Shown here: positions 49,546 to 58,368 of the stretch, piece by piece | Layout of the letters: every line of letters begins with the position of its first letter | Position numbering within the stretch: position 1 is the stretch's first letter | Assembly (NCBI GenBank): GCA_902466395.1 | Contig: CABQQR010000002.1 | Location: 110,184 to 174,183 of the forward strand | From: an uncultured Collinsella sp. | GTDB lineage: Bacteria > Actinomycetota > Coriobacteriia > Coriobacteriales > Coriobacteriaceae | Direction: 5' to 3' | DNA length: 64,000 nucleotides | Translations under genes and position numbers: made by a program | The notes under the pieces: generated by a model | What the model saw: only the letters and a program-made list of their open reading frames with translations | What the model was told of the DNA's origin: nothing | Databases searched by the model: none

Positions 49546-50709
49546 CTAATACAGACCCGCCTCGCGGATGGCCTCGACAGCCAAAGCAATCTGATCGGGC
49601 GGCAGGACCAGCGCCATGCGCACGTGTCCCTCGCCCGAAGGACCAAAGCTCGCGCCCGGCGTCACCACAACGCCGGCCTTCTCCATGAGCTCCTCGCAAA
49701 ACGCCATGGAATCGGTGCGACCACCGGGAAGCTTGGCCCACACAAACATAGAGCCATGCGCGTTGGGACGCTCCCAGCCCAGGCCCTCAAGACCGTCGCG
49801 CAGGGCATCGCGGCGCTCCTGGTACTTCAGACGCTGCGCCTCGACCTCATCGCGCGGACCGTTCAGGCAGGCGATAGCAGCCTTCTGGATCGGGAAGAAC
49901 ATACCAAAGTCGATCTGGCCGCGCAGCTTGGCAAAGGCCGAGACCACATCCTCGCGACCGACCAAAAAGCCGATACGCGCACCGGTGACGTTAAACGACT
50001 TGGAGAGCGAGAAGAACTCAACGCCCACCTCGAGCGCGCCGGGATACTGCAAGAAGCTGCCGCCCGGCTCGCCGTCGAACACGATGTCGGAGTATGCGTT
50101 GTCGTGAACGATGAGCAGGTCGTGCTCGCGGGCGAAAGCGATGACCTCCTCGTAGACCTCGGGCGTGCCCACCGAGCCCACCGGGTTGGCGGGCAGCGAC
50201 ACAATCATGTACTTGGCACGATCGGCCACCTCGGGATCGATACCCGCCACATAGGGCAGGTAATTGTGCTCCGCCACCAGCGGATAGTACTCGAGCTTGG
50301 CATCGGCGATCTTGGCACCCGCCTCAAAGACCGGGTAGCACGGATCGGGAACCAGGATGGTGTCACCCGGATCGAGCAGGGCCAGGCCCAAATGGCCCAC
50401 GCCCTCCTGCGTGCCGTTGCACGACTGCACCATGGACGGTGTAATGCCCGAAACGCCAAAGCGACGCTCATAGTAATCGCACACGGCTTGTTTGAGTTCG
50501 GGCAGGTCGCGCAGGGCATACTTCCACATCTCGGGATCTTGGGCTGCATGCGTGAGCGCCTCGACCACATGGTCGTACGGCTTAAAGTCGGGCGTGCCCA
50601 CGCTCATGTTGTAAATGGTCTTGCCCTGAGCCTTCAGCGCGAGAAGTTCGTTGTTGAGCGAGGCGAAGACCTCCGCGCCAAAGCGGTCGAGACGCTGCGA
50701 TGCCTGCAT
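49546..50709 (-). CDS. PLP-dependent class I aminotransferase (possibly the N-acetyl-LL-diaminopimelate aminotransferase of the acetylase DAP route)
   Basis: PLP-Lys region SLSKSFNVTGARIG, fold type I. ATG at 50709 after an AAAGGTGG RBS. Confidence 0.8.
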   Translation of the reverse strand: MQASQRLDRFGAEVFASLNNELLALKAQGKTIYNMSVGTPDFKPYDHVVEALTHAAQDPEMWKYALRDLPELKQAVCDYYERRFGVSGITPSMVQSCNGTQEGVGHLGLALLDPGDTILVPDPCYPVFEAGAKIADAKLEYYPLVAEHNYLPYVAGIDPEVADRAKYMIVSLPANPVGSVGTPEVYEEVIAFAREHDLLIVHDNAYSDIVFDGEPGGSFLQYPGALEVGVEFFSLSKSFNVTGARIGFLVGREDVVSAFAKLRGQIDFGMFFPIQKAAIACLNGPRDEVEAQRLKYQERRDALRDGLEGLGWERPNAHGSMFVWAKLPGGRTDSMAFCEELMEKAGVVVTPGASFGPSGEGHVRMALVLPPDQIALAVEAIREAGLY

Positions 50710-50826
50710 GGTGCCACCTTTCGATATGAAAAACGCGGCGCTCCGACAAGAGCGCCGCGCGATACGGGCCATCAGATTGCAAAAGTGTAACGCTTGCACC
50801 CGCTGTTTTGGTTCAATTTGGCAACC

Positions 50827-52827
50827 TTAGTCCATCGGATTGAGCGCGTCAATCTGGGCGAGCCACAGGCGCGAGCTGGCGTCACTCGGCATACGCCAAT
50901 CGCCGCGCGGACTGAGCGTCACCGAGCCCACCTTGGGACCATCGGGCAGGCAGCTGCGCTTAAACTGCTGGGCAAAGAAGCGACGATAGAACGTACGCAG
51001 CCACGTGTGAACGGTCTTGGCATCGTAGACGCCCTCGAAGCTCTTGAGCGCCATGCGGTAGATCTTGCCCGGCTCAAAGCCAAAACGCAGTAGGTAGTAG
51101 AGGAAGTAGTCGTGCAGCTCGTACGGGCCCACCAAATCCTCGGTCTTCTGCGCAATCTCGCCGTCGCCCGTGGGCGGCAGAAGCTCGGGGGACACCGGCG
51201 TATCGAGGATGTCGAGCAGCGTCTCGGCAATACGCCCGCCAAAGACATCAGCCGCATAACGCACCAGATGACGCACAAGCGTCTTGGGCACGCTCGCATT
51301 GACGGCATACATGCTCATGTGGTCTCCGTTATAGGTAGCCCAGCCGAGCGCCAGCTCCGACAGGTCACCGGTGCCGATGACAAAGCCGCCAGCCTGGTTG
51401 GCCAAGTCCATCAGAATCTGCGTACGCTCGCGGGCTTGGCTGTTCTCGTAAGTCACGTCCTGCACGGCCGGATCGTGCTCAATGTCCTTGAAGTGCTGCT
51501 CCACGGCCGCGTGGATCGAAACCTCGCGGAAGCTCACGCCAAGGTCGCGAGCGAGCGACTCGGCATTCGACTTGGTACGATGCGTCGTGCCAAAGCCGGG
51601 CATGGACACGGCAGTGATGCCTGTGCGCGGCAGCCCCAGCGCATCAAAGGCACGCACGGTCACAAGCAGTGCCAACGTGGAGTCCAGGCCGCCCGAAAGA
51701 CCGATGACAGCCGCCTTGGTACCCGTATGGGCAAGGCGGGTCTTGAGGCCCGCAGTCTGCAGGTCGAGGATGGTCTCGCAGCGCTCGGCCAGGTCGCCAT
51801 GGTCGGCCGGCACAAAGGGCGCGCGCGGGAAAACGCGGTCGATATCGCAGGCATCGCGCAGGACAGGCTCTTCGGCCAACACACCCTCAAACGAAAACTC
51901 AACGGTCGTGTCCTCCGGCGCATCGTCCGCGCGTGTCCACGTCGTCGAGCGGCGGCGCTCGGCAACCAGGCGGTCAAGGTCAACATCGGCGACGGCCATG
52001 TCGCAGGTAAGCAGTTTGGTGGCGGCCAGCTTAGAGCCGTTTTCGTAGATCAGGTTCTCGCCCGCAAAGACCATGTCGGTCGTGGACTCGCCCTCGCTCG
52101 CATCGGCGTAGACATAGGCGCAGTACAGGCGCGCACTCTGATTGGAGATAAGGCTGCGGCGGTAATCCGCCTTGCCGATAATCTCGTCCGAGGCCGACGG
52201 GTTGAGAATCACCGTCGCACCGGCAAGCGCCATCTCGGTCGAAGGGGGTGCCGGCACCCACAGGTCCTCACAGACTTCAACGCCCAGCACCAGGTCCTCG
52301 GCGCCTTCATCACAGCAACGGTAGACAAGCCCCGAACCCAGCGGGACCGGACCCTGACCGGCAAATTCAACCCACACGGGATCCGCAGGCGCCGGAGCAA
52401 ACCAACGGCGCTCATAGAACTCGCCATAGTTGGGCAGATACTTCTTGGCCGTGAGGCCCAAAAGCTCGCCCGCGCAGCACACGGCGGCGCAGTTGTAGAT
52501 ATTCTCGGCAACTGCAACGGGAAGACCGATGGTAAAGACGACCGGCAACTCACGGGTTTCATCAAGGATGTGCACAAGTGCCGCCTCGCAGGCATGCAGC
52601 AGTGTGCGGTTATGGAACAGATCGGCCGCGGTATAGCCGCACAGATTAAGCTCGGGCAACACCAACGCGCGAATGCCGCGCTCGGCAGCTCTGCGAACAG
52701 CTGCCAGCGCAACCTCGGCATTACCCTCGACATCGGCCACGCGAATCTGCGGCGACGCCGCCGCCACACGCAAAAAGCCATCGTTCTTATTAGCCGAAAC
52801 GCAGCATTGCCTTGTTGATCTGGACAC
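50827..52827 (-). CDS. nadE: Glutamine-dependent NAD+ synthetase (N-terminal nitrilase domain plus C-terminal NadE domain)
   Basis: CN-hydrolase domain (…VLPELNLCGYT…EVCEDLW…) followed by a PP-loop (GLSGGLDSTL). The start is uncertain: GTG at 52827 or an internal start near 52770. Confidence 0.9.
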   Translation of the reverse strand: MSRSTRQCCVSANKNDGFLRVAAASPQIRVADVEGNAEVALAAVRRAAERGIRALVLPELNLCGYTAADLFHNRTLLHACEAALVHILDETRELPVVFTIGLPVAVAENIYNCAAVCCAGELLGLTAKKYLPNYGEFYERRWFAPAPADPVWVEFAGQGPVPLGSGLVYRCCDEGAEDLVLGVEVCEDLWVPAPPSTEMALAGATVILNPSASDEIIGKADYRRSLISNQSARLYCAYVYADASEGESTTDMVFAGENLIYENGSKLAATKLLTCDMAVADVDLDRLVAERRRSTTWTRADDAPEDTTVEFSFEGVLAEEPVLRDACDIDRVFPRAPFVPADHGDLAERCETILDLQTAGLKTRLAHTGTKAAVIGLSGGLDSTLALLVTVRAFDALGLPRTGITAVSMPGFGTTHRTKSNAESLARDLGVSFREVSIHAAVEQHFKDIEHDPAVQDVTYENSQARERTQILMDLANQAGGFVIGTGDLSELALGWATYNGDHMSMYAVNASVPKTLVRHLVRYAADVFGGRIAETLLDILDTPVSPELLPPTGDGEIAQKTEDLVGPYELHDYFLYYLLRFGFEPGKIYRMALKSFEGVYDAKTVHTWLRTFYRRFFAQQFKRSCLPDGPKVGSVTLSPRGDWRMPSDASSRLWLAQIDALNPMD

Positions 52828-52949
52828 TGGAGGCCCCTTCTACCCTGAGATTCAGTCTAACGGACGTTCACATATCTCTAACTAGCCAAAGCAACCTCTC
52901 AGTTTACTGAGACGCCAACCTGTGCTAAGAGCATGTATTCCAAAAATAT

Positions 52950-52995
52950 CTTTAATTAAAAAAGGAGAAATCGATAATCGACTTCTCCTTTAAGC
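52950..52995 (-). terminator. Rho-independent terminator closing the low-GC radical-SAM island
   Basis: Minus-strand RNA reads cttaaaggagaa gtcgattatcgat ttctcctttttt, about 20 nt after the 36-aa peptide stop. Confidence 0.6.
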
Positions 52996-53015
52996 GAGGC
53001 AAGTTAATTCCGAAA

Positions 53016-53126
53016 CTAATGGCAGAATTTATCCATGTAGTCCTCAAAGTCGAACACTTCTACCACGACGCCCTCTTCCTGAGACTCTTTCAGTTGCTCC
53101 AAGAGATCTTTGTTAATAACGTCCAT
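53016..53126 (-). CDS. 36-aa highly acidic peptide MDVINKDLLEQLKESQEEGVVVEVFDFEDYMDKFCH, a candidate precursor or partner peptide of the radical SAM enzyme
   Basis: Not in the ORF track because it is under 60 aa. An AGGAGG RBS lies immediately after the radical SAM stop codon (TAG AGGAGG TTTCTGC ATG), which implies translational coupling. The terminator follows. Low-GC codon usage matches the island. Confidence 0.6.
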   Translation of the reverse strand: MDVINKDLLEQLKESQEEGVVVEVFDFEDYMDKFCH

Positions 53127-53139
53127 GCAGAAACCTCCT

Positions 53140-55461
53140 CTATCTAATCAATTGTAGTATATCTGCTTTCATGCAATTATCAACCAACTTGTTTAATTGC
53201 TCCTCGTTTGTCGATAGTCCCTCTTTTTTCAAAATGTCGCGCACCTCGTTCTTAGTAATCGGCTTTTCAAACAACGAAAGCAAAGCGAACGAAAAATCAT
53301 TAACCGCACACATTCTATGGGTGGCACAACTCAGCAGTACTCTTAACCCCTCTTTTGAGCGTCCGACTTCTTTAACAAACGAACTTTTAACCAATTGAAA
53401 ACCGTTATCGTGCATTACATAATCGGCATCGATATTTGTATTCAGCAATCCATAATGCAACAGTTCTTCTATCGCCCTTGTCAGCTCGAGGTCGCCCTGA
53501 TCAAGAATAAGAGAAATGCTACAATCGGCCTCCAATAAACGGGCCAACTTAAGGTATACCAACTGGGAAACAGCATAGACATGATGGTATTCAGAATTAT
53601 AGAAGTAGGCAAATGGCTCAACGAGCACGACAGAGGTCTTGGAATCCAGCCAGATTCGATCAGCTGGATTTAGACTAGTTAGCCGTCGCTTTACTTTGGT
53701 CAAATGTCCCTTATACCTGACAGCGTGAATAGAATCTAGGATCCAGGTCACCTCTGAAATATGAAGCCGCTGGGGCAAGTCAATTGTGTCGCTACCGTTT
53801 ATGACCTCTTGCATATAAAAATCAATATGATGCTCATCAGATAAGGATTTTGCTTCATTTAAAGTTAAACCAGTGCCTGAAACATAATCCACTTCGAGGC
53901 GCAAATCCTCATATTGGGACTTCGGCATTACAGAGACACCATACTTATCGGGATGATTCCAAACATCCGACCCCATAACGAGACCAAAATTCGTAAATCC
54001 TCTCGTGGAATATGGAACACCACATACCTGTTTTGAATAATTCAAAACATTCTCTGTATAAGCTAAGGTGTTCAGAGCCTCTTCTTTAGTTTCGGTCGGA
54101 AAGCCAATCATAAAAAATAGATGAACAGGAATACCCGCATTGAGACAATCATGGACATTGCGATCAATCCAATCAACTCTCGTGTTCTTCTTCATTAGAT
54201 CAAGAACTCTTTGGTTGTATGACTCGAGGCCAAACTGAATCTGCCTACATCCACTTTGGTATATCTTGTTAAAAACTTCTGTACTTAGGGTTGGAGAGAA
54301 CCTCGTTTCTCCATGCCAGAAAAACGTTTTTCCCGATGCGTTTATTTCATCCGCGAGTTGCTCCATTCTTTTGCCTTCGAATGTTTCATCCACAAAAGAG
54401 AAAACTCTCGTGCCGTATTTTTCATTTAACCGACACATTATTTCAAATACTCTCGATATAGGCATCTTTCGGTAACAACCACCGGTGGCACCGGGAATGG
54501 TGCAGAAGGCGCAATGATTAAAACACTGCCTAGAGGAATAAACCGGCAATATTAACTCAGGCATGAAGTATTTAGAAAGGGCGAAGCCATCGAAATCGGG
54601 AACTGTATCGTTGATAAATGTTTGCTCAATCCGATGGTTTTTATATATCTTTCCACCTTTAGCATGGCAAAGGTTTGGAACACAGTCGAGATTGTCATCA
54701 CCAGAGTCAAGAGCCTCAAGAAGACGTGCAAGCGGCTCTTCGCCGTCATACATCATTATCGAATCAATGTATTCAAAAAAGGGATGCCATTCTTTCATGC
54801 AGTCATCTGCTAAACGAGTAATGTAATTGCCGCCCAATGAGACGTGTTTAACAGATGGACATTCTTCCTTAATCAGTTTCGCTAACGTAACTGCAGAAAT
54901 CAATTGGAAACAGCCGCTCACCGAAATCCCAATAAACTCGAATTTTTCCCTCTGAATACGCTTAAGAAAGGCAGTTTCATAGAAGGAAATAAACGGATTA
55001 TGCAAGGTATCCGCAAGCGATTTCATTATTTCTGGTGTCGAATAATAATCATAGGGCAGATCTATGGAGTTGAACGTGTATTTAACTCCATATGAGACGT
55101 GATTTATGATATAGAGTGCATTTCTAAAAATGTTTTCAGCATATTGTCTTTCTTTTAGATTAAAGTATCTCTTCGATCTGAAAATATCTTTTGCCTCGTC
55201 AACATTAAGTGCCGACTTTTGTATCAACTCGATTGTTAATTGAACATTCGAACTAAACGAATCCTTTGATTCCCGATACCTTTTACAGCACTCTTCGACA
55301 TGTCTAAAAGATAGGAGGTCATCGTAAAATTCCACGTTTAAGTCAACAATGTCAACTTTGTATTGTTCAACCTCTTGAAGATATGACTTCAAAACAGGCA
55401 AGGCAAGATACGGCCCCACTGGACTCCATCCTGGGGGAAATACTAAAAGCGTTTTAGGCAT
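53140..55461 (-). CDS. B12-binding-domain radical SAM enzyme (class B, 773 aa) with a roughly 210-aa C-terminal extension
   Basis: N-terminal cobalamin-binding-like domain (MPKTLLVFPPGWSPVGPYLALPVL…ISVSGCFQLISAVTLAKLIKEECPSVKHVSLGGNY). The radical SAM cluster motif is CFNHCAFC (Cx3Cx2C). There is no Cys-rich SPASM domain. GC is about 38% against a genome value of about 63%. Confidence 0.85.
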   Translation of the reverse strand: MPKTLLVFPPGWSPVGPYLALPVLKSYLQEVEQYKVDIVDLNVEFYDDLLSFRHVEECCKRYRESKDSFSSNVQLTIELIQKSALNVDEAKDIFRSKRYFNLKERQYAENIFRNALYIINHVSYGVKYTFNSIDLPYDYYSTPEIMKSLADTLHNPFISFYETAFLKRIQREKFEFIGISVSGCFQLISAVTLAKLIKEECPSVKHVSLGGNYITRLADDCMKEWHPFFEYIDSIMMYDGEEPLARLLEALDSGDDNLDCVPNLCHAKGGKIYKNHRIEQTFINDTVPDFDGFALSKYFMPELILPVYSSRQCFNHCAFCTIPGATGGCYRKMPISRVFEIMCRLNEKYGTRVFSFVDETFEGKRMEQLADEINASGKTFFWHGETRFSPTLSTEVFNKIYQSGCRQIQFGLESYNQRVLDLMKKNTRVDWIDRNVHDCLNAGIPVHLFFMIGFPTETKEEALNTLAYTENVLNYSKQVCGVPYSTRGFTNFGLVMGSDVWNHPDKYGVSVMPKSQYEDLRLEVDYVSGTGLTLNEAKSLSDEHHIDFYMQEVINGSDTIDLPQRLHISEVTWILDSIHAVRYKGHLTKVKRRLTSLNPADRIWLDSKTSVVLVEPFAYFYNSEYHHVYAVSQLVYLKLARLLEADCSISLILDQGDLELTRAIEELLHYGLLNTNIDADYVMHDNGFQLVKSSFVKEVGRSKEGLRVLLSCATHRMCAVNDFSFALLSLFEKPITKNEVRDILKKEGLSTNEEQLNKLVDNCMKADILQLIR

Positions 55462-55468
55462 ATCAACG

Positions 55469-56656
55469 TCACATCTTTCGCAAATAATTCAATTGAAACA
55501 CAACTACCATCATAATTGAAAATACACCAAGTCCTGTAACGAGAATTGAGAACATCGCGATGCTCGTGAACAGCGAAACAAGAAGTGTTGAAATAACAAC
55601 AGCAACCGATTGCAAAGACTCCCTAATTGAAAACAGGCTTATCGATTCAGATCCGTCTCTCGCCAAATCCTGCAGCGATGTTATGAGAAGCACATCTTGA
55701 ATGGCGTTTCCGGCACCGACGATAAAAAGGAAAATAAACGATATCCCAGACGCATAGCGATAGCCAAACGCCAGATACGCACCGAGCGCAAGATACGTCA
55801 CAAAACAATATGATTTAACGCAATCGGAACCACTGATTAAACGACCATATATTGTATTTCCGAACAACAGTCCGATTGTAAGACTACTCTGAAGGAATCC
55901 GTATTGTATCGATGACGAGTCAAATTGCAATTGCGCTATAGCTGGCAAAAGAGAATTCAGAGAGCCGAATGCCACGCCACTAGAAATATCGATTAATAGG
56001 AAACCAATTGCCAAGTGCTTCGCGCTAAGATCACTAAATGCAGTCCTGTTTTTTTCATTTTTGCTTATTCCCTCTTTATCATTAACCTCGATAACCGACG
56101 GAACATCTCGCAGCAACCAGAACGACGCGGCAAAAGAAAGCGCGTCTAATGCAAGAACAGCCTCCGCCCCAAATTGAGCGACAACAAAACCGCCGGCAAC
56201 TGGCCCCAGAACCATCATCAAATTCTGCAGGAACCCAAACGAATTATTAATTACGTCGCGATTGATACTATTCGTATTGGCTCTTAACAACGAGTAAAAG
56301 CAGGGCATTTCTACCGTTCGGCAAAGCGATACCGCGCACGTAATAGCAAACATACTCCATTTACTATCAACAAAAATATAGCAAACGAATAATCCCGCGC
56401 GAATTAAGTCTGCCAATCTCATGGCCTGCAGTGTCCCGATACCCATCTTCTGAGGCAGCTGCGCGAGCGCAACTGAAAACAGAGAGGGGGCAAATCTGCA
56501 GCAGACCATCAAAGCAGTTGCAGAAACATCGTGAGTTACCTCGTAAATCAGCATTGGCAAAGCAATATTCGCACACCAATTGCCTATTTCGCTTATCCCT
56601 CTAGCAATATATAGGACCCGAACCGGACGGCTAGCTCTCAATACCGTGAACATCAC
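55469..56656 (-). CDS. MFS transporter (candidate exporter of the island product)
   Basis: 12-TM MFS profile, AT-rich like the neighbouring genes. The stop lies 8 bp before the radical SAM start. Confidence 0.75.
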   Translation of the reverse strand: MMFTVLRASRPVRVLYIARGISEIGNWCANIALPMLIYEVTHDVSATALMVCCRFAPSLFSVALAQLPQKMGIGTLQAMRLADLIRAGLFVCYIFVDSKWSMFAITCAVSLCRTVEMPCFYSLLRANTNSINRDVINNSFGFLQNLMMVLGPVAGGFVVAQFGAEAVLALDALSFAASFWLLRDVPSVIEVNDKEGISKNEKNRTAFSDLSAKHLAIGFLLIDISSGVAFGSLNSLLPAIAQLQFDSSSIQYGFLQSSLTIGLLFGNTIYGRLISGSDCVKSYCFVTYLALGAYLAFGYRYASGISFIFLFIVGAGNAIQDVLLITSLQDLARDGSESISLFSIRESLQSVAVVISTLLVSLFTSIAMFSILVTGLGVFSIMMVVVFQLNYLRKM

Positions 56657-56912
56657 GATTAACCTCGTATTTCAGGCCTCGTTCATCCCTTAATAGGAAT
56701 CCATAATCAACCAAGTACCGCCTCAACACGGCATAATCAGGATAGAGCTGTGACAGCACACGATTAACCTGAAGCTCCGTATAACTTGTATTTAATTCAA
56801 AGAAAGAGACGGCCCATAGCAGCATGATTCTTTTATAGCTTTCCTTTTTTGGAATTGAAACCAGCTCGCCATTCTTGAGAAATCGTTTTTTAAAGTCTAT
56901 TAGCTCATCCAT
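56631..56912 (-). CDS. Small DUF2087-like protein (93 aa)
   Basis: …YTELQVNRVLSQLYPDYAVLRRYLVDYGFLLRDERGLKYEV… resembles the DUF2087 module often fused to ArsR-type regulators. It overlaps the MFS start by 26 bp. Confidence 0.5.
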   Translation of the reverse strand: MDELIDFKKRFLKNGELVSIPKKESYKRIMLLWAVSFFELNTSYTELQVNRVLSQLYPDYAVLRRYLVDYGFLLRDERGLKYEVNRDVHGIES

Positions 56913-57012
56913 TCACATCCTCCATTTCATACGCATCTAATACTAAAAATGCATACGCTTTAGGTCATCGCATTCAGCTTCTTTATTCGAACTAAACTCG
57001 AACTAATCTAAA

Positions 57013-57231
57013 TTATTTGCTCAGACACTCTTCGAAAGCTCGTTTTTCACTCTGAGTAAAATGCCCTTCCCAGTCAGTCCACGAACAGGAAGGCAACTCA
57101 CAACGAGCGGAGTCGAAGCCCTCTGCCGTCGGTCGCTCAAAATGCACGATAACCTTTTCAATATCGCCATCTGTAATCAGGTCAGAATGAATGACCTCGG
57201 TTCCATCTTCGAATGTCATATACGGGTACAT
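57013..57231 (-). CDS. Hypothetical 72-aa protein MYPYMTFEDGTEVIHSDLITDGDIEKVIVHFERPTAEGFDSARCELPSCSWTDWEGHFTQSEKRAFEECLSK
   Basis: GAGGTGG RBS 8 nt before the ATG at 57231. It is the first gene of the low-GC island. The longer 157-aa ORF in the track is a GC-rich read-through artefact. Confidence 0.4.
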   Translation of the reverse strand: MYPYMTFEDGTEVIHSDLITDGDIEKVIVHFERPTAEGFDSARCELPSCSWTDWEGHFTQSEKRAFEECLSK

Positions 57232-57405
57232 CACGTAAACCACCTCGCAAACATAAATCCAGTTTAGCATCAAGCTATTGCACCAAAGACAGCAGGCCCC
57301 CTTGATGAGTTGATGGTATCTGTTAAATGTCACGTATGATTCACATCTGGTGGGTACCCTGATGGCTACACGAAACGAAGCAGATTTACACCGGGAGGAC
57401 CCCGT

Positions 57406-58368
57406 ATGACAACCAAGTACACCGACGCGCCGCGCACGCGCGTCATGACGCCGGCATCGCTCAACAACGGCGTGCACGAGAACCATTCCATCGGACAGAC
57501 CATGGCCATCGCGCCCAAAAAGGGCCTGTTCGATGACATTTCCATTCCCCAGATCATCGCCGGCGCCGCAGCTGCCGCCACGAGCGTCGCGCTTGCCTCC
57601 AAGATTGGTATCGCTGGTTCAGTAATTGGCGCCGCCGTGAGCTCGGTCATCACCGTTGTGTCCTCGCAGGTCTACCGCCACTTTATCTCTGCCAGCGCCG
57701 AAGCAATCAAGGGCACGCATGCCGCTGTCGACTACCCTGCCGGCGCCTACGAGCCCGTTGAACCCGATGTCGAGGAGCACCTAGGTGGCGCCGCGACCAC
57801 GCAGGAAATGCGCCAGGTTGCGGGACGCGCGACCACGGCGCGCGTCGCCCCTAACAGTCTGCGCGCCAAGGCGGCGGCAGAGCGCAGCCAGACGCAAAAG
57901 AAGGTCATCGTCTTCTCGATCGCCATCGCCATCGTCGCGGTCATCGCCTGTACCGGCGCCATCCTTATTACCACCGCCGGTGAGGGTCTGGGCGAGCGCC
58001 CCGAGCCAATCCTTTCGTCGCGCACGACCGAGAGCGATGCAAATGGCACCACCCAGTCGCAGGATCAGCAGGCACAGACGGACGACACGCAAGACAATTC
58101 TACCTCTGCCGATTCGTCCGCGAACACCCAAAACCAATCGCAGGGTACCGATTCCTCTACGGCCAACAGTGGCACGCCGTCCGGCACGACCGACTCAAGC
58201 CAAACGACTGACGGTTCGCAGCCGAGCACGGGCGGTCAGACGAGCGACACCACTTCGGGAACGGGCACAGCAGACAGCAGCAACACCAACAGCTCGAACA
58301 GCTCGAGCGGAACCGCGTCCGGCACGGCATCCGACAACTCGAGCCAAGGCACGGCATCGGGCAACTAA
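57406..58368 (+). CDS. Hypothetical membrane protein with a Ser/Thr/Gln-rich low-complexity C-terminal tail
   Basis: Two Gly/Ala-rich TM segments and a roughly 130-aa S/T/Q/D-rich tail (…TDSSQTTDGSQPSTGGQTSDTTSGTGT…). Confidence 0.5.
   Translation: MTTKYTDAPRTRVMTPASLNNGVHENHSIGQTMAIAPKKGLFDDISIPQIIAGAAAAATSVALASKIGIAGSVIGAAVSSVITVVSSQVYRHFISASAEAIKGTHAAVDYPAGAYEPVEPDVEEHLGGAATTQEMRQVAGRATTARVAPNSLRAKAAAERSQTQKKVIVFSIAIAIVAVIACTGAILITTAGEGLGERPEPILSSRTTESDANGTTQSQDQQAQTDDTQDNSTSADSSANTQNQSQGTDSSTANSGTPSGTTDSSQTTDGSQPSTGGQTSDTTSGTGTADSSNTNSSNSSSGTASGTASDNSSQGTASGN

Follow-up and report, generated by a model that had tools for sequence, protein, structure and literature searches.

A 36-residue peptide gene beside a predicted cobalamin-type radical SAM enzyme in Collinsella probably encodes the precursor of a modified peptide

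The window analysed here is a 64,000-nucleotide stretch of DNA from an uncultured Collinsella sp. (GenBank assembly GCA_902466395.1, contig CABQQR010000002.1, positions 110,184 to 174,183). Its G+C content is ~60%, except in a segment at ~52.9–57.3 kb, where it is ~40%. This 4.4-kb low-GC island carries a four-gene operon on the minus strand, in the order DUF2087 protein (93 aa), major facilitator superfamily (MFS) transporter (395 aa), radical S-adenosylmethionine (SAM) enzyme (773 aa) and a peptide of 36 aa. The last of these genes is the subject of this report, and probably encodes the substrate of the radical SAM enzyme in a pathway for a RiPP, a peptide that is synthesized ribosomally and then modified post-translationally. 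The features of the peptide gene and its immediate surroundings are as follows.

53016–53126, minus strand: gene for the putative precursor peptide, 36 aa plus stop (from sequence, conservation, codon selection and public gene calls)
53064–53126, minus strand: putative leader, residues 1–21, to which the single-residue Collinsella variants are confined
53019–53063, minus strand: putative core, residues 22–36, VEVFDFEDYMDKFCH, near-invariant
53025–53030, minus strand: family-conserved K33-F34 of the tail motif
53134–53139, minus strand: Shine-Dalgarno sequence AGGAGG, abutting the radical SAM stop codon, 7 nt before the peptide ATG
53156–53183, minus strand: promoter-like hexamers TTGATA-16-TATACT in the radical SAM 3' end (consensus match, 10/12)
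52961–52991, minus strand: intrinsic-terminator-like hairpin at the operon end (14-bp stem, 3-nt loop, T-rich tail)

The open reading frame (ORF) runs from an ATG at 53126–53124 to a TAG stop at 53018–53016, and its product, MDVINKDLLEQLKESQEEGVVVEVFDFEDYMDKFCH, contains 11 acidic residues, 3 Lys and 1 His. An earlier note on this DNA, made from the letters and a list of their ORFs, had given both the sequence and the coordinates of the ORF (53016–53126, minus strand) exactly. The upstream arrangement that it described is likewise read directly in the sequence: the TAG stop of the radical SAM gene (53142–53140) is directly adjoined by AGGAGG, followed by a 7-nt spacer (TTTCTGC) and the peptide ATG. 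Where a terminator had been placed about 20 nt past the peptide, the hairpin starts 24 nt after the stop (52991–52961). The tight 13-nt spacing behind the proposed translational coupling to the enzyme gene is confined to Collinsella-type islands; such coupling is not a family feature, because elsewhere the spacing varies from an overlap to ~150 nt. Shine-Dalgarno-like sequences also precede the small ORF in the related loci L091, L092, L093, L095, L097, L099 and L183. The promoter-like hexamers are sigma-70-like and lie ~30 nt before the peptide ATG. Promoter-like sites in the region are in total not above shuffle expectation, and these hexamers are a weak candidate for an internal promoter of the precursor gene. 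An Rfam search of the island and 12 related loci detected no riboswitch or other RNA, and none overlapping the ORF.

The peptide had been described as unannotated and as liable to be missed by ORF-length cut-offs. Neither description holds in the strict sense: gene callers report the ORF in >21,000 blocks of public assemblies, and GenBank and UniProt hold entries named 'Uncharacterised protein [Collinsella aerofaciens]' (CUP28592.1, CUN48868.1, A0A174LWN9). The ORF is thus present in databases, yet lacks functional annotation, and no Pfam or NCBIfam model matched the peptide or nine of its relatives.

A 36-codon ORF is by itself not beyond chance, and it is conservation that lifts this one above it. 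The surroundings of divergent enzyme homologs, from 68% down to 34% identity, were retrieved. A scan of genome contigs gave only Collinsella loci, which served the population analysis and contained no divergent relatives; a metagenome scan was again mostly Collinsella, its only new loci being L147, L156 and L101, the last of which is another copy of the locus of Desulfosporosinus type. A co-directional ORF of 32–37 aa lies directly 3' of the radical SAM homolog in 13 of 13 distinct loci from at least 11 clades, and is found in Coriobacteriia, Lachnospiraceae, Dorea, Lactococcus, Bacilli, Desulfosporosinus, Fusobacterium and Paraclostridium. The earlier note would have counted absence of the small ORF or of its frame from related islands against a gene; position, orientation, frame and sequence pattern are all kept beside radical SAM homologs down to 34–40% identity. 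Several of the relatives, which are listed below, are uncalled in their source annotation.

L091: MLPIDLEIIEKLKETCEEGVKIEVFDFEDYMDKFCH
L092: MDVISRDLLEKLKDSQKEGVKIEVFDFEDYMDKFCH
L093 (Lachnospiraceae/Hungatella type): MDKQLLEKLKELEEKEIIAESLENQDYVMKYAT
L147: MEKELIERLKELEAQDIFAENLENEDYVVKYST
L095 (Lactococcus lactis): MDFEKIKSLAEVMEVQSTKDSAQAVDSEMNTKYC
L182 (Bacilli): MDFEKIKELSKNMEVKSTKESTRAVESEVNTKFV
L097 (Desulfosporosinus acidiphilus): MSKEILKQLQEEALTKEVTAEVFDTCSNSTQYV
L098 (Dorea): MLELLQEIKEMVNEEIKFDVMANQSVNDAMNTTQYSP
L099 (Fusobacterium nucleatum): MKKLILIEIKKLSEKEGVEVKNCDLGSSLTTKYA
L100 (Paraclostridium ghonii plasmid): MSQSKLNKLKNYKEKTIKFDKNIVSQSTTQYCLK
L181: MSMEQLRSLVVEESIEFEEIDVKEPNSTKYTSPE
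L183: MSKEMIELLEEKENNENTSLEFEDLDSNTNSTKYC

The N-terminal half of these relatives is rich in Leu/Ile, Glu and Lys and forms a leader of varying sequence, and their C-termini follow the pattern [S/T/D]-[K/Q]-[Y/F]-x(1-4)-end. The pair [K/Q]-[Y/F], located 2–5 residues from the C-terminus, is invariant in 15 sequences. Because Phe replaces Tyr in two clades (Collinsella and L182), the phenol oxygen is not required. A Cys follows the aromatic residue in only 4 of ~11 clades, and His is present in the Collinsella type only. The earlier note had pointed to the Tyr, Cys and His of the C-terminal segment (Tyr30, Cys35 and His36) as frequent targets of radical SAM chemistry, whereas the pair conserved across the family is K33-F34; the search for small ORFs near radical SAM homologs that it suggested did reveal a shared aromatic tail, but not conservation of the Cys/His part. 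In one further locus (L156, 4652–4750), the peptide encoded after a radical SAM homolog of greater distance is MEQKILDALKKETDNTIDIDGYDDNTSHKDKE, which has a similar leader and lacks the [K/Q]-[Y/F] tail; this type may be a sister family with a different core.

A hidden Markov model (HMM) built from nine family peptides was searched against 72,201 ORFs of 15–80 aa from 181 sources. It matched solely ORFs directly 3' of a radical SAM gene (E <= 1.4e-6), the next best ORF having E = 30. Leave-one-clade-out profiles were used to remove the circularity of this test. The profile without Collinsella-type peptides recovered these top-ranked (E = 5e-5 to 5e-4), and the corresponding values were 1.6e-4 for Lachnospiraceae, 7e-3 for Dorea, 0.05 for Desulfosporosinus and 1.4 for Paraclostridium. 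When the single peptide was searched with phmmer against 1.84 billion representatives, only Collinsella-type clusters matched, so gene context is needed to join the family.

Codon comparison of the window with L091 and L092 likewise supports a coding gene. Synonymous sites are saturated among these three Collinsella-type islands, and the last 15 codons differ from those of the window by 6–9 synonymous and 0–1 nonsynonymous changes. The proportion of nonsynonymous differences (pN) is 0.18–0.36 in the leader versus 0–0.03 in the core, and each of the five other frames either contains stops or has roughly double the number of amino-acid changes. On this comparison, purifying selection acts on the protein in this frame only. 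An ORF of 42 aa on the opposite strand (53019–53147, plus) was also considered and rejected, its frame carrying stops in L091. Judged by its conservation, the 36-codon ORF is a real, conserved gene.

The division between leader and core is equally visible within Collinsella, where 13 of 13 single-residue variants fall in residues 1–21. The core EVFDFEDYMDKFCH is identical across islands whose radical SAM, MFS and DUF2087 proteins share only 40–74%: in Collinsella-type islands all 14 of its 14 residues are identical, versus identities of 60–74% for the radical SAM enzyme, 44–59% for the MFS transporter and 40–58% for the DUF2087 protein. By these alignments no other element of the island is as well conserved as the core. 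In one metagenome-assembled genome (L012, 8336–8446), a core variant ending in VVVEELDYEDNKHKFCH was observed, with KFCH retained; it differs by six nonsynonymous point changes within 24 nt in an otherwise identical island, and may be a real diversification or an assembly artefact.

The enzyme encoded directly upstream has the following features.

53140–55461, minus strand: 773-aa B12-binding-type radical SAM enzyme, putative maturase (from Pfam, NCBIfam, AlphaFold2 and Foldseek)
Residues ~1–290 of the enzyme: N-terminal Rossmann/B12-like domain
54502–54525, minus strand: radical SAM motif C313-x3-C317-x2-C320 (CxxxCxxC, residues 313–320)
53146–53700, minus strand: two RRE-like beta3-alpha3 domains, residues 588–772 (predicted structure)

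The Pfam Radical_SAM model matches the 773-aa protein with E = 6.6e-18, and the best NCBIfam match is TIGR03975, a RiPP C-methyltransferase family (E = 1.5e-34, residues 6–519); PhpK-type P-methyltransferases, HpnJ and ApyD are further near families, all under their cut-offs. An AlphaFold2 model built on 64 homologs reached a predicted local distance difference test score (pLDDT) of 93.5 and a predicted template modelling score (pTM) of 0.92. Its best PDB matches in Foldseek are the cobalamin radical SAM enzymes OxsB, TsrM, MgmA, TokK and CysS, with all of which the full-length model aligns over 570–700 columns. The protein therefore models as a cobalamin-type (class B) radical SAM enzyme. Pfam and NCBIfam searches found no SPASM domain in it. 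Only C313, C317, C320 and C405 are conserved in at least 90% of the 64 homologs, among which there are no conserved auxiliary-cluster cysteines. Streptomyces B12-radical SAM proteins are distant matches (33–35% over ~70% of the enzyme length). Six rare ORFs of 1053 aa (P0002–P0007) combine MFS and radical SAM domains and are 98% identical to the window enzyme; they are probably read-through fusions arising from a small indel at the 7-nt junction between the two genes.

Modelled alone, the C-terminal residues 580–773 (194 aa) of the enzyme form two beta3-alpha3 modules (pLDDT 92.4), and Foldseek matched them to ThcOx, TigE, TbiB1 with its leader, the RiPP recognition element (RRE) of PbtF, lasso B1, MibB, CteB and MccB; ThcOx itself has two RREs. 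Pfam PqqD was matched in 3 of 23 homologous C-termini. A profile of the region found no match among PDB sequences, so the RRE assignment rests on predicted structure and the three PqqD matches. Tandem RRE-like, leader-binding domains are thus predicted at the enzyme C-terminus. The earlier note had suggested an acidic, helical leader followed by a C-terminal segment as the target of the enzyme; single-residue variants in residues 1–21 only, a core identical among diverged islands and these predicted domains all agree with such a split.

The two remaining operon genes lie upstream of the enzyme gene.

55469–56656, minus strand: MFS transporter (MFS_1/MFS_3, EntS-like; Pfam and NCBIfam), putative exporter and/or self-protection protein
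56631–56912, minus strand: DUF2087 protein, 93 aa (E = 4.6e-20), first operon gene, putative expression modulator

All 13 loci have an MFS gene next to the enzyme gene. DUF2087 occurs in six, free or fused to a helix-turn-helix (HTH) or GerE domain: it is found in L091, L092 and L183, while L093 has a fusion with GerE and L097 fusions with HTH domains. Other adjacent regulators are Rgg (L095, L182), LytTR (L093), a histidine kinase/response regulator (HK/RR) pair (L098) and extracytoplasmic function (ECF) sigma factors (L100, L183). The regulators often adjacent to related loci (Rgg, LytTR, HK/RR) are of the peptide-signal type, and no ORF resembling a short hydrophobic peptide (SHP) was recognised beside the Lactococcus rgg gene.

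Several further observations concern the borders of these clusters. In Lactococcus lactis (L095, 8766–9681), two overlapping genes come after the cluster, one DUF4430 lipoprotein-like and the other for a 187-aa protein of no known family. We take DUF4430 to be a transcobalamin-like C-terminal domain; if so, it would fit cobalamin supply for a B12-dependent enzyme in a B12 non-producer. The window also has, immediately upstream of the DUF2087 gene, an ORF of 68–85 aa that matched no family (57013–57219, up to 57270, minus strand). It lies at the GC transition of the island edge (~42–46% G+C); most Collinsella loci have it as a called gene, and L091 has an ORF of about this size in the same place (2263–2511). 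Lanthipeptide genes adjoin two members of the family, a LanM-like gene in Dorea (L098, 1–1700) and a LanB dehydratase gene in L181 (5648–8448), which may mark RiPP 'hot spots' or hybrid clusters.

A search with the enzyme retrieved 80 genome loci, every one of them from Collinsella aerofaciens or Collinsella spp. Across 90 Collinsella loci (L001–L090), of which 80 are different GTDB species representatives, the island (52,900–57,350) is 99.1–100% identical (median 99.5%), compared with median identities in the flanks (49,546–52,767 and 57,406–58,368) of 92.6% for nadE, 95.8% for the aminotransferase gene and 90.8% for the right flank. From this pattern, the island seems to have swept or spread horizontally in recent times, always at a single fixed site in the chromosome. 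A search of plasmids (PLSDB) with tblastn gave only a distant Rhizobium match and no sign of a plasmid-borne island. L092, from a more distantly related Coriobacteriia genome (nadE 86%, aminotransferase 90% at the protein level), holds a far more diverged island allele at the same site, with an identical core peptide. Its proteins are 68–74% (radical SAM), 59% (MFS) and 58% (DUF2087) identical to those of the window, and its radical SAM gene is split (229 + 537 aa). In this locus nadE lies on the near side of the island, and a 40-residue fragment 80% identical to the nadE N-terminus lies on the far side (2600–2806, best match 2663–2782). From its sequence the fragment looks like a target duplication from integration into the nadE 5' end. 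The window has no duplicated nadE fragment and no direct or inverted repeats flanking the island.

Of 148 complete Collinsella copies of the radical SAM gene, 44 are broken, with at least 36 distinct and independent lesion patterns, which comprise nonsense codons at >20 positions, frameshifts and insertion sequence (IS) insertions. The other genes are disrupted less often (MFS in 6/157 copies, DUF2087 in 4/153, peptide in 1/150), and the lesion density per kb of the radical SAM gene is ~4 times that of the MFS gene. Among ten loci chosen regardless of the enzyme (L001–L010), the radical SAM gene is full length in three, and nadE, MFS, DUF2087 and peptide genes in all ten. Disrupted examples include L001, L002, L004, L007–L010 and many of L011–L180, and GCA_041333955.1 is a genome with an intact gene. 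In L004 (5611–6929; GCA_008679405.1), an IS1595-family DDE transposase gene with a zinc ribbon and a RelB-like gene sit in the middle of the radical SAM gene. As a hypothesis, loss of the producer enzyme with retention of the exporter fits a secreted, socially exploitable product.

Taken together, the ORF probably encodes the precursor peptide of a four-gene RiPP-type operon with a B12-type radical SAM enzyme. The gene arrangement is observed, and transcription would start upstream of the DUF2087 gene and end at the hairpin past the peptide. Acidic, helical residues ~1–21 would serve as the leader bound by the tandem RRE-like domains, whose fold is predicted. Leader binding would place the C-terminal tail in the active site, where the [K/Q]-[Y/F] pair (K33-F34) or its neighbours would be modified. 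The likeliest reaction is a C-methylation, dependent on cobalamin and SAM, at one or more unactivated carbons, which is the first choice because the closest named families are all class B methyltransferases. Among the chemistries raised in the earlier note, C-methylation accordingly stands as a first guess by analogy. Thioether formation is unlikely because the enzyme is B12-type and not SPASM-type, without conserved auxiliary-cluster cysteines, and the Cys/His part is not conserved; the latter counts against modification of the His as well. The MFS protein would export the product, with or without removal of the leader by a protease encoded elsewhere, and the DUF2087 protein may modulate precursor expression by analogy with BtmL from bottromycin biosynthesis. 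As for the product, a signal or antimicrobial that is secreted is most likely, rather than a cofactor acting inside the cell.

The system is of a broad known kind, the radical-SAM-modified RiPP with a B12-type maturase, and falls outside the TIGR03975, ApyD, clavusporin MpcBC and Pqq/Mft families with which it was compared. Literature searches on the core strings, on Collinsella with radical SAM and RiPP, and on B12-radical SAM RiPPs returned no description of the family core strings, of a Collinsella radical SAM RiPP or of this Lactococcus cluster. The best-scoring named family is TIGR03975 (rSAM_ocin_1), that of PoyB/PoyC, which are class B enzymes acting on ribosomal peptides; the window enzyme scores 119.5 bits versus a cut-off of 281.85, and its tandem RRE region (580–773) lies outside the match. 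PoyB/PoyC-type precursors are long NHLP/Nif11-type peptides with many methylation sites, whereas the family described here has peptides of 32–37 aa with a single conserved tail.

ApyD of aminopyruvatide biosynthesis is a B12-radical SAM enzyme with a fused RRE that methylates the beta-carbon of a Tyr near the precursor C-terminus (PMC11002830, PMC10635010). The present system similarly combines a B12-type radical SAM enzyme, an RRE-like region on the same chain and a short precursor with aromatics 2–4 positions from the C-terminus, and ApyD is the closest functional analogy for methylation of the tail Tyr/Phe. However, the window enzyme scores 84.9 bits versus the ApyD cut-off of 750. The apy clusters further encode a multinuclear non-haem iron-dependent oxidative enzyme (MNIO) with its partner, a P450 and a methyltransferase, genes that are absent from the neighbourhoods here, and they require a precursor with a C-terminal Asp, whereas the window peptide ends in His.

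The bottromycin cluster resembles the island in its combination of DUF2087, MFS, B12-type radical SAM and short precursor genes, its MFS transporter being BtmA. For bottromycin, further enzymes are necessary (YcaO proteins, hydrolases, a P450, an O-methyltransferase), and a follower takes the place of a leader in its precursor. YcaO, hydrolase, P450 and O-methyltransferase genes are absent here, and the precursors have no detected similarity. The cluster encodes class B radical SAM methyltransferases and the precursor BtmD, precursor transcript levels are specifically increased by the DUF2087 protein BtmL, and an internal transcription start lies before btmD (PMC7113386). The last is a possible parallel to the promoter-like site in the radical SAM 3' end. 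In clavusporin biosynthesis, MpcB/MpcC comprise a B12-radical SAM enzyme and a DUF5825 partner, which perform iterative beta-C-methylation alongside an MFS transporter and an S9 peptidase (PMC10849626). The B12-type radical SAM enzyme, MFS transporter and short precursor are shared; in contrast, MpcB has a CX7CX2C motif and a separate DUF5825 partner, and in the window enzyme the motif is CX3CX2C and the RRE-like domains are fused. None of the neighbourhoods examined contained a gene for a DUF5825 protein or an S9 peptidase.

The streptococcal RaS-RiPPs (streptide, tryglysin, ryptide) are made by Rgg/SHP-controlled radical SAM operons (PMC9389541). They share with the present family a minimal operon of precursor, one radical SAM enzyme and one exporter, and Rgg is directly upstream in its Lactococcus (L095) and Bacilli (L182) members. 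In contrast, the window island has DUF2087 and no Rgg, and its precursor gene is 3' of the enzyme gene, whereas in RaS-RiPPs it is 5'. Furthermore, StrB, WgkB, TqqB, NxxcB, RrrB, GggB and QmpB are SPASM/auxiliary-cluster enzymes that make cross-links. None of the reviewed RaS-RiPP enzymes has been described as B12-dependent (PMC9389541).

Several points weigh against the precursor and C-methylation interpretation. Translation and modification of the peptide are predictions from sequence and models. The Lactococcus lactis and Fusobacterium peptides had leave-one-clade-out E values >100, so that only their position and TKY tail link them to the family. The B12-binding model of Pfam matches under its gathering score (E = 6.6e-4, 19.9 versus 32.1 bits), the Rfam search gave no cobalamin riboswitch to back B12 use, and the enzyme lies under the curated cut-off of every named family, TIGR03975 and ApyD included (scores above). 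Its sole PDB match by sequence is AprD4, by NCBIfam name a non-methylating radical SAM diol-dehydratase, which is not known to use cobalamin; cobalamin use and methylation are therefore not assured. The island encodes no leader peptidase, and no protease was consistently present in the related loci examined. The radical SAM gene, intact in the window (53140–55461), is inactivated in ~30–50% of Collinsella copies, so the pathway is dispensable and may be decaying in Collinsella. Finally, B12-type radical SAM enzymes can also make C-C cross-links, as PbsB does (PMC12257519).

The last point leads to the best-surviving alternative, in which the peptide is still the precursor and the enzyme makes a radical C-C cross-link, e.g. 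from the Lys/Gln side chain or a nearby residue to the Tyr/Phe ring, giving a small C-terminal macrocycle. The invariant pair does couple an aliphatic-chain residue (K/Q) with an aromatic one (Y/F), recalling the Lys-Trp and Arg-Tyr links made by radical SAM enzymes (PMC9389541), and the biaryl C-C bond formed by PbsB shows that a B12-type enzyme can do so (PMC12257519). The Phe found for Tyr in Collinsella and L182 would be expected if the ring and not the hydroxyl is used. However, the nearest named families are all methyltransferases, the cyclases known for Lys-Trp and Arg-Tyr links belong to the SPASM type and carry auxiliary clusters, for which no conserved extra cysteines exist here, and adjacency of K/Q and Y/F is an awkward geometry for a side-chain bond. 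We consider a cross-link unlikely, though a serious candidate. A bolder extension of the precursor reading is similarly doubtful: it would make the system a new RiPP class, in which a tandem-RRE B12-type enzyme performs a reaction other than simple methylation on the [K/Q]-[Y/F] tail to yield a secreted gut signal or narrow-spectrum antimicrobial, the island having recently swept many Collinsella species and the producer gene now being repeatedly lost with the exporter kept, in a producer/cheater dynamic that metagenomes make visible.

The peptide could also give rise to a redox cofactor or small molecule used inside the cell and cut out of the C-terminus in the manner of PqqA/PQQ or MftA/mycofactocin, an analogy drawn in the earlier note. 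Like PqqA/PqqE/PqqD and MftA/MftC/MftB, the system pairs a short, acidic precursor bearing a conserved aromatic near its C-terminus with a PqqD-type recognition domain guiding the enzyme, here part of the radical SAM protein itself, and its cluster has no leader peptidase gene. Yet PqqE and MftC are SPASM-type enzymes and this one is B12-type, and Pqq/Mft pathways have further tailoring genes, an intracellular product and no exporter, none of which is matched here: an MFS efflux-type transporter gene is present in all 13 loci, no PqqB/C/F or MftD/E/F homologs or partner dehydrogenases were seen in them, the neighbouring regulators are of the peptide-signalling type, and the pathway is lost in many strains, which would be unusual for a cofactor. 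The analogy is weak, and a cofactor precursor is very unlikely.

Still less probable is a small protein that is not a substrate, but assists the radical SAM enzyme or transporter as a chaperone, accessory subunit or regulator. Its adjacency to the enzyme is conserved and modification of the peptide is a prediction; against this, the fast-evolving N-terminal half with a near-invariant C-terminal tail is the pattern of a RiPP precursor, the predicted leader-binding RRE folds in the enzyme fit a precursor, and a structural partner should co-vary with the enzyme, whereas the core stays the same even where enzyme identity is only 60%. Scarcely credible is a chance ORF in the 3' untranslated region with only the nucleotide sequence (e.g. 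of the terminator region) conserved: a 36-codon ORF is not rare in AT-rich DNA and 99% identity of the whole island within Collinsella makes conservation there say little, but among the window, L091 and L092 synonymous sites are saturated with 0–1 amino-acid changes in the core and stops or many changes in other frames, and an ORF preceded by a Shine-Dalgarno sequence recurs with the common tail motif in eight other distant clades.

Few Actinomycetota of the human gut are as prevalent as Collinsella aerofaciens, and the exact peptide occurs in >21,000 public assembly blocks, with relatives in Lactococcus lactis (food strains), Fusobacterium nucleatum, Dorea and Lachnospiraceae. For this precursor family, which has no curated model, the [K/Q]-[Y/F] tail points to the site of a B12/radical SAM reaction, and precursor, single maturase and exporter would constitute a minimal three-gene pathway that is directly testable. 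Strains with the recurrent maturase lesions provide natural knock-outs for comparative metabolomics, and the population pattern suggests a social or ecological role for the product.

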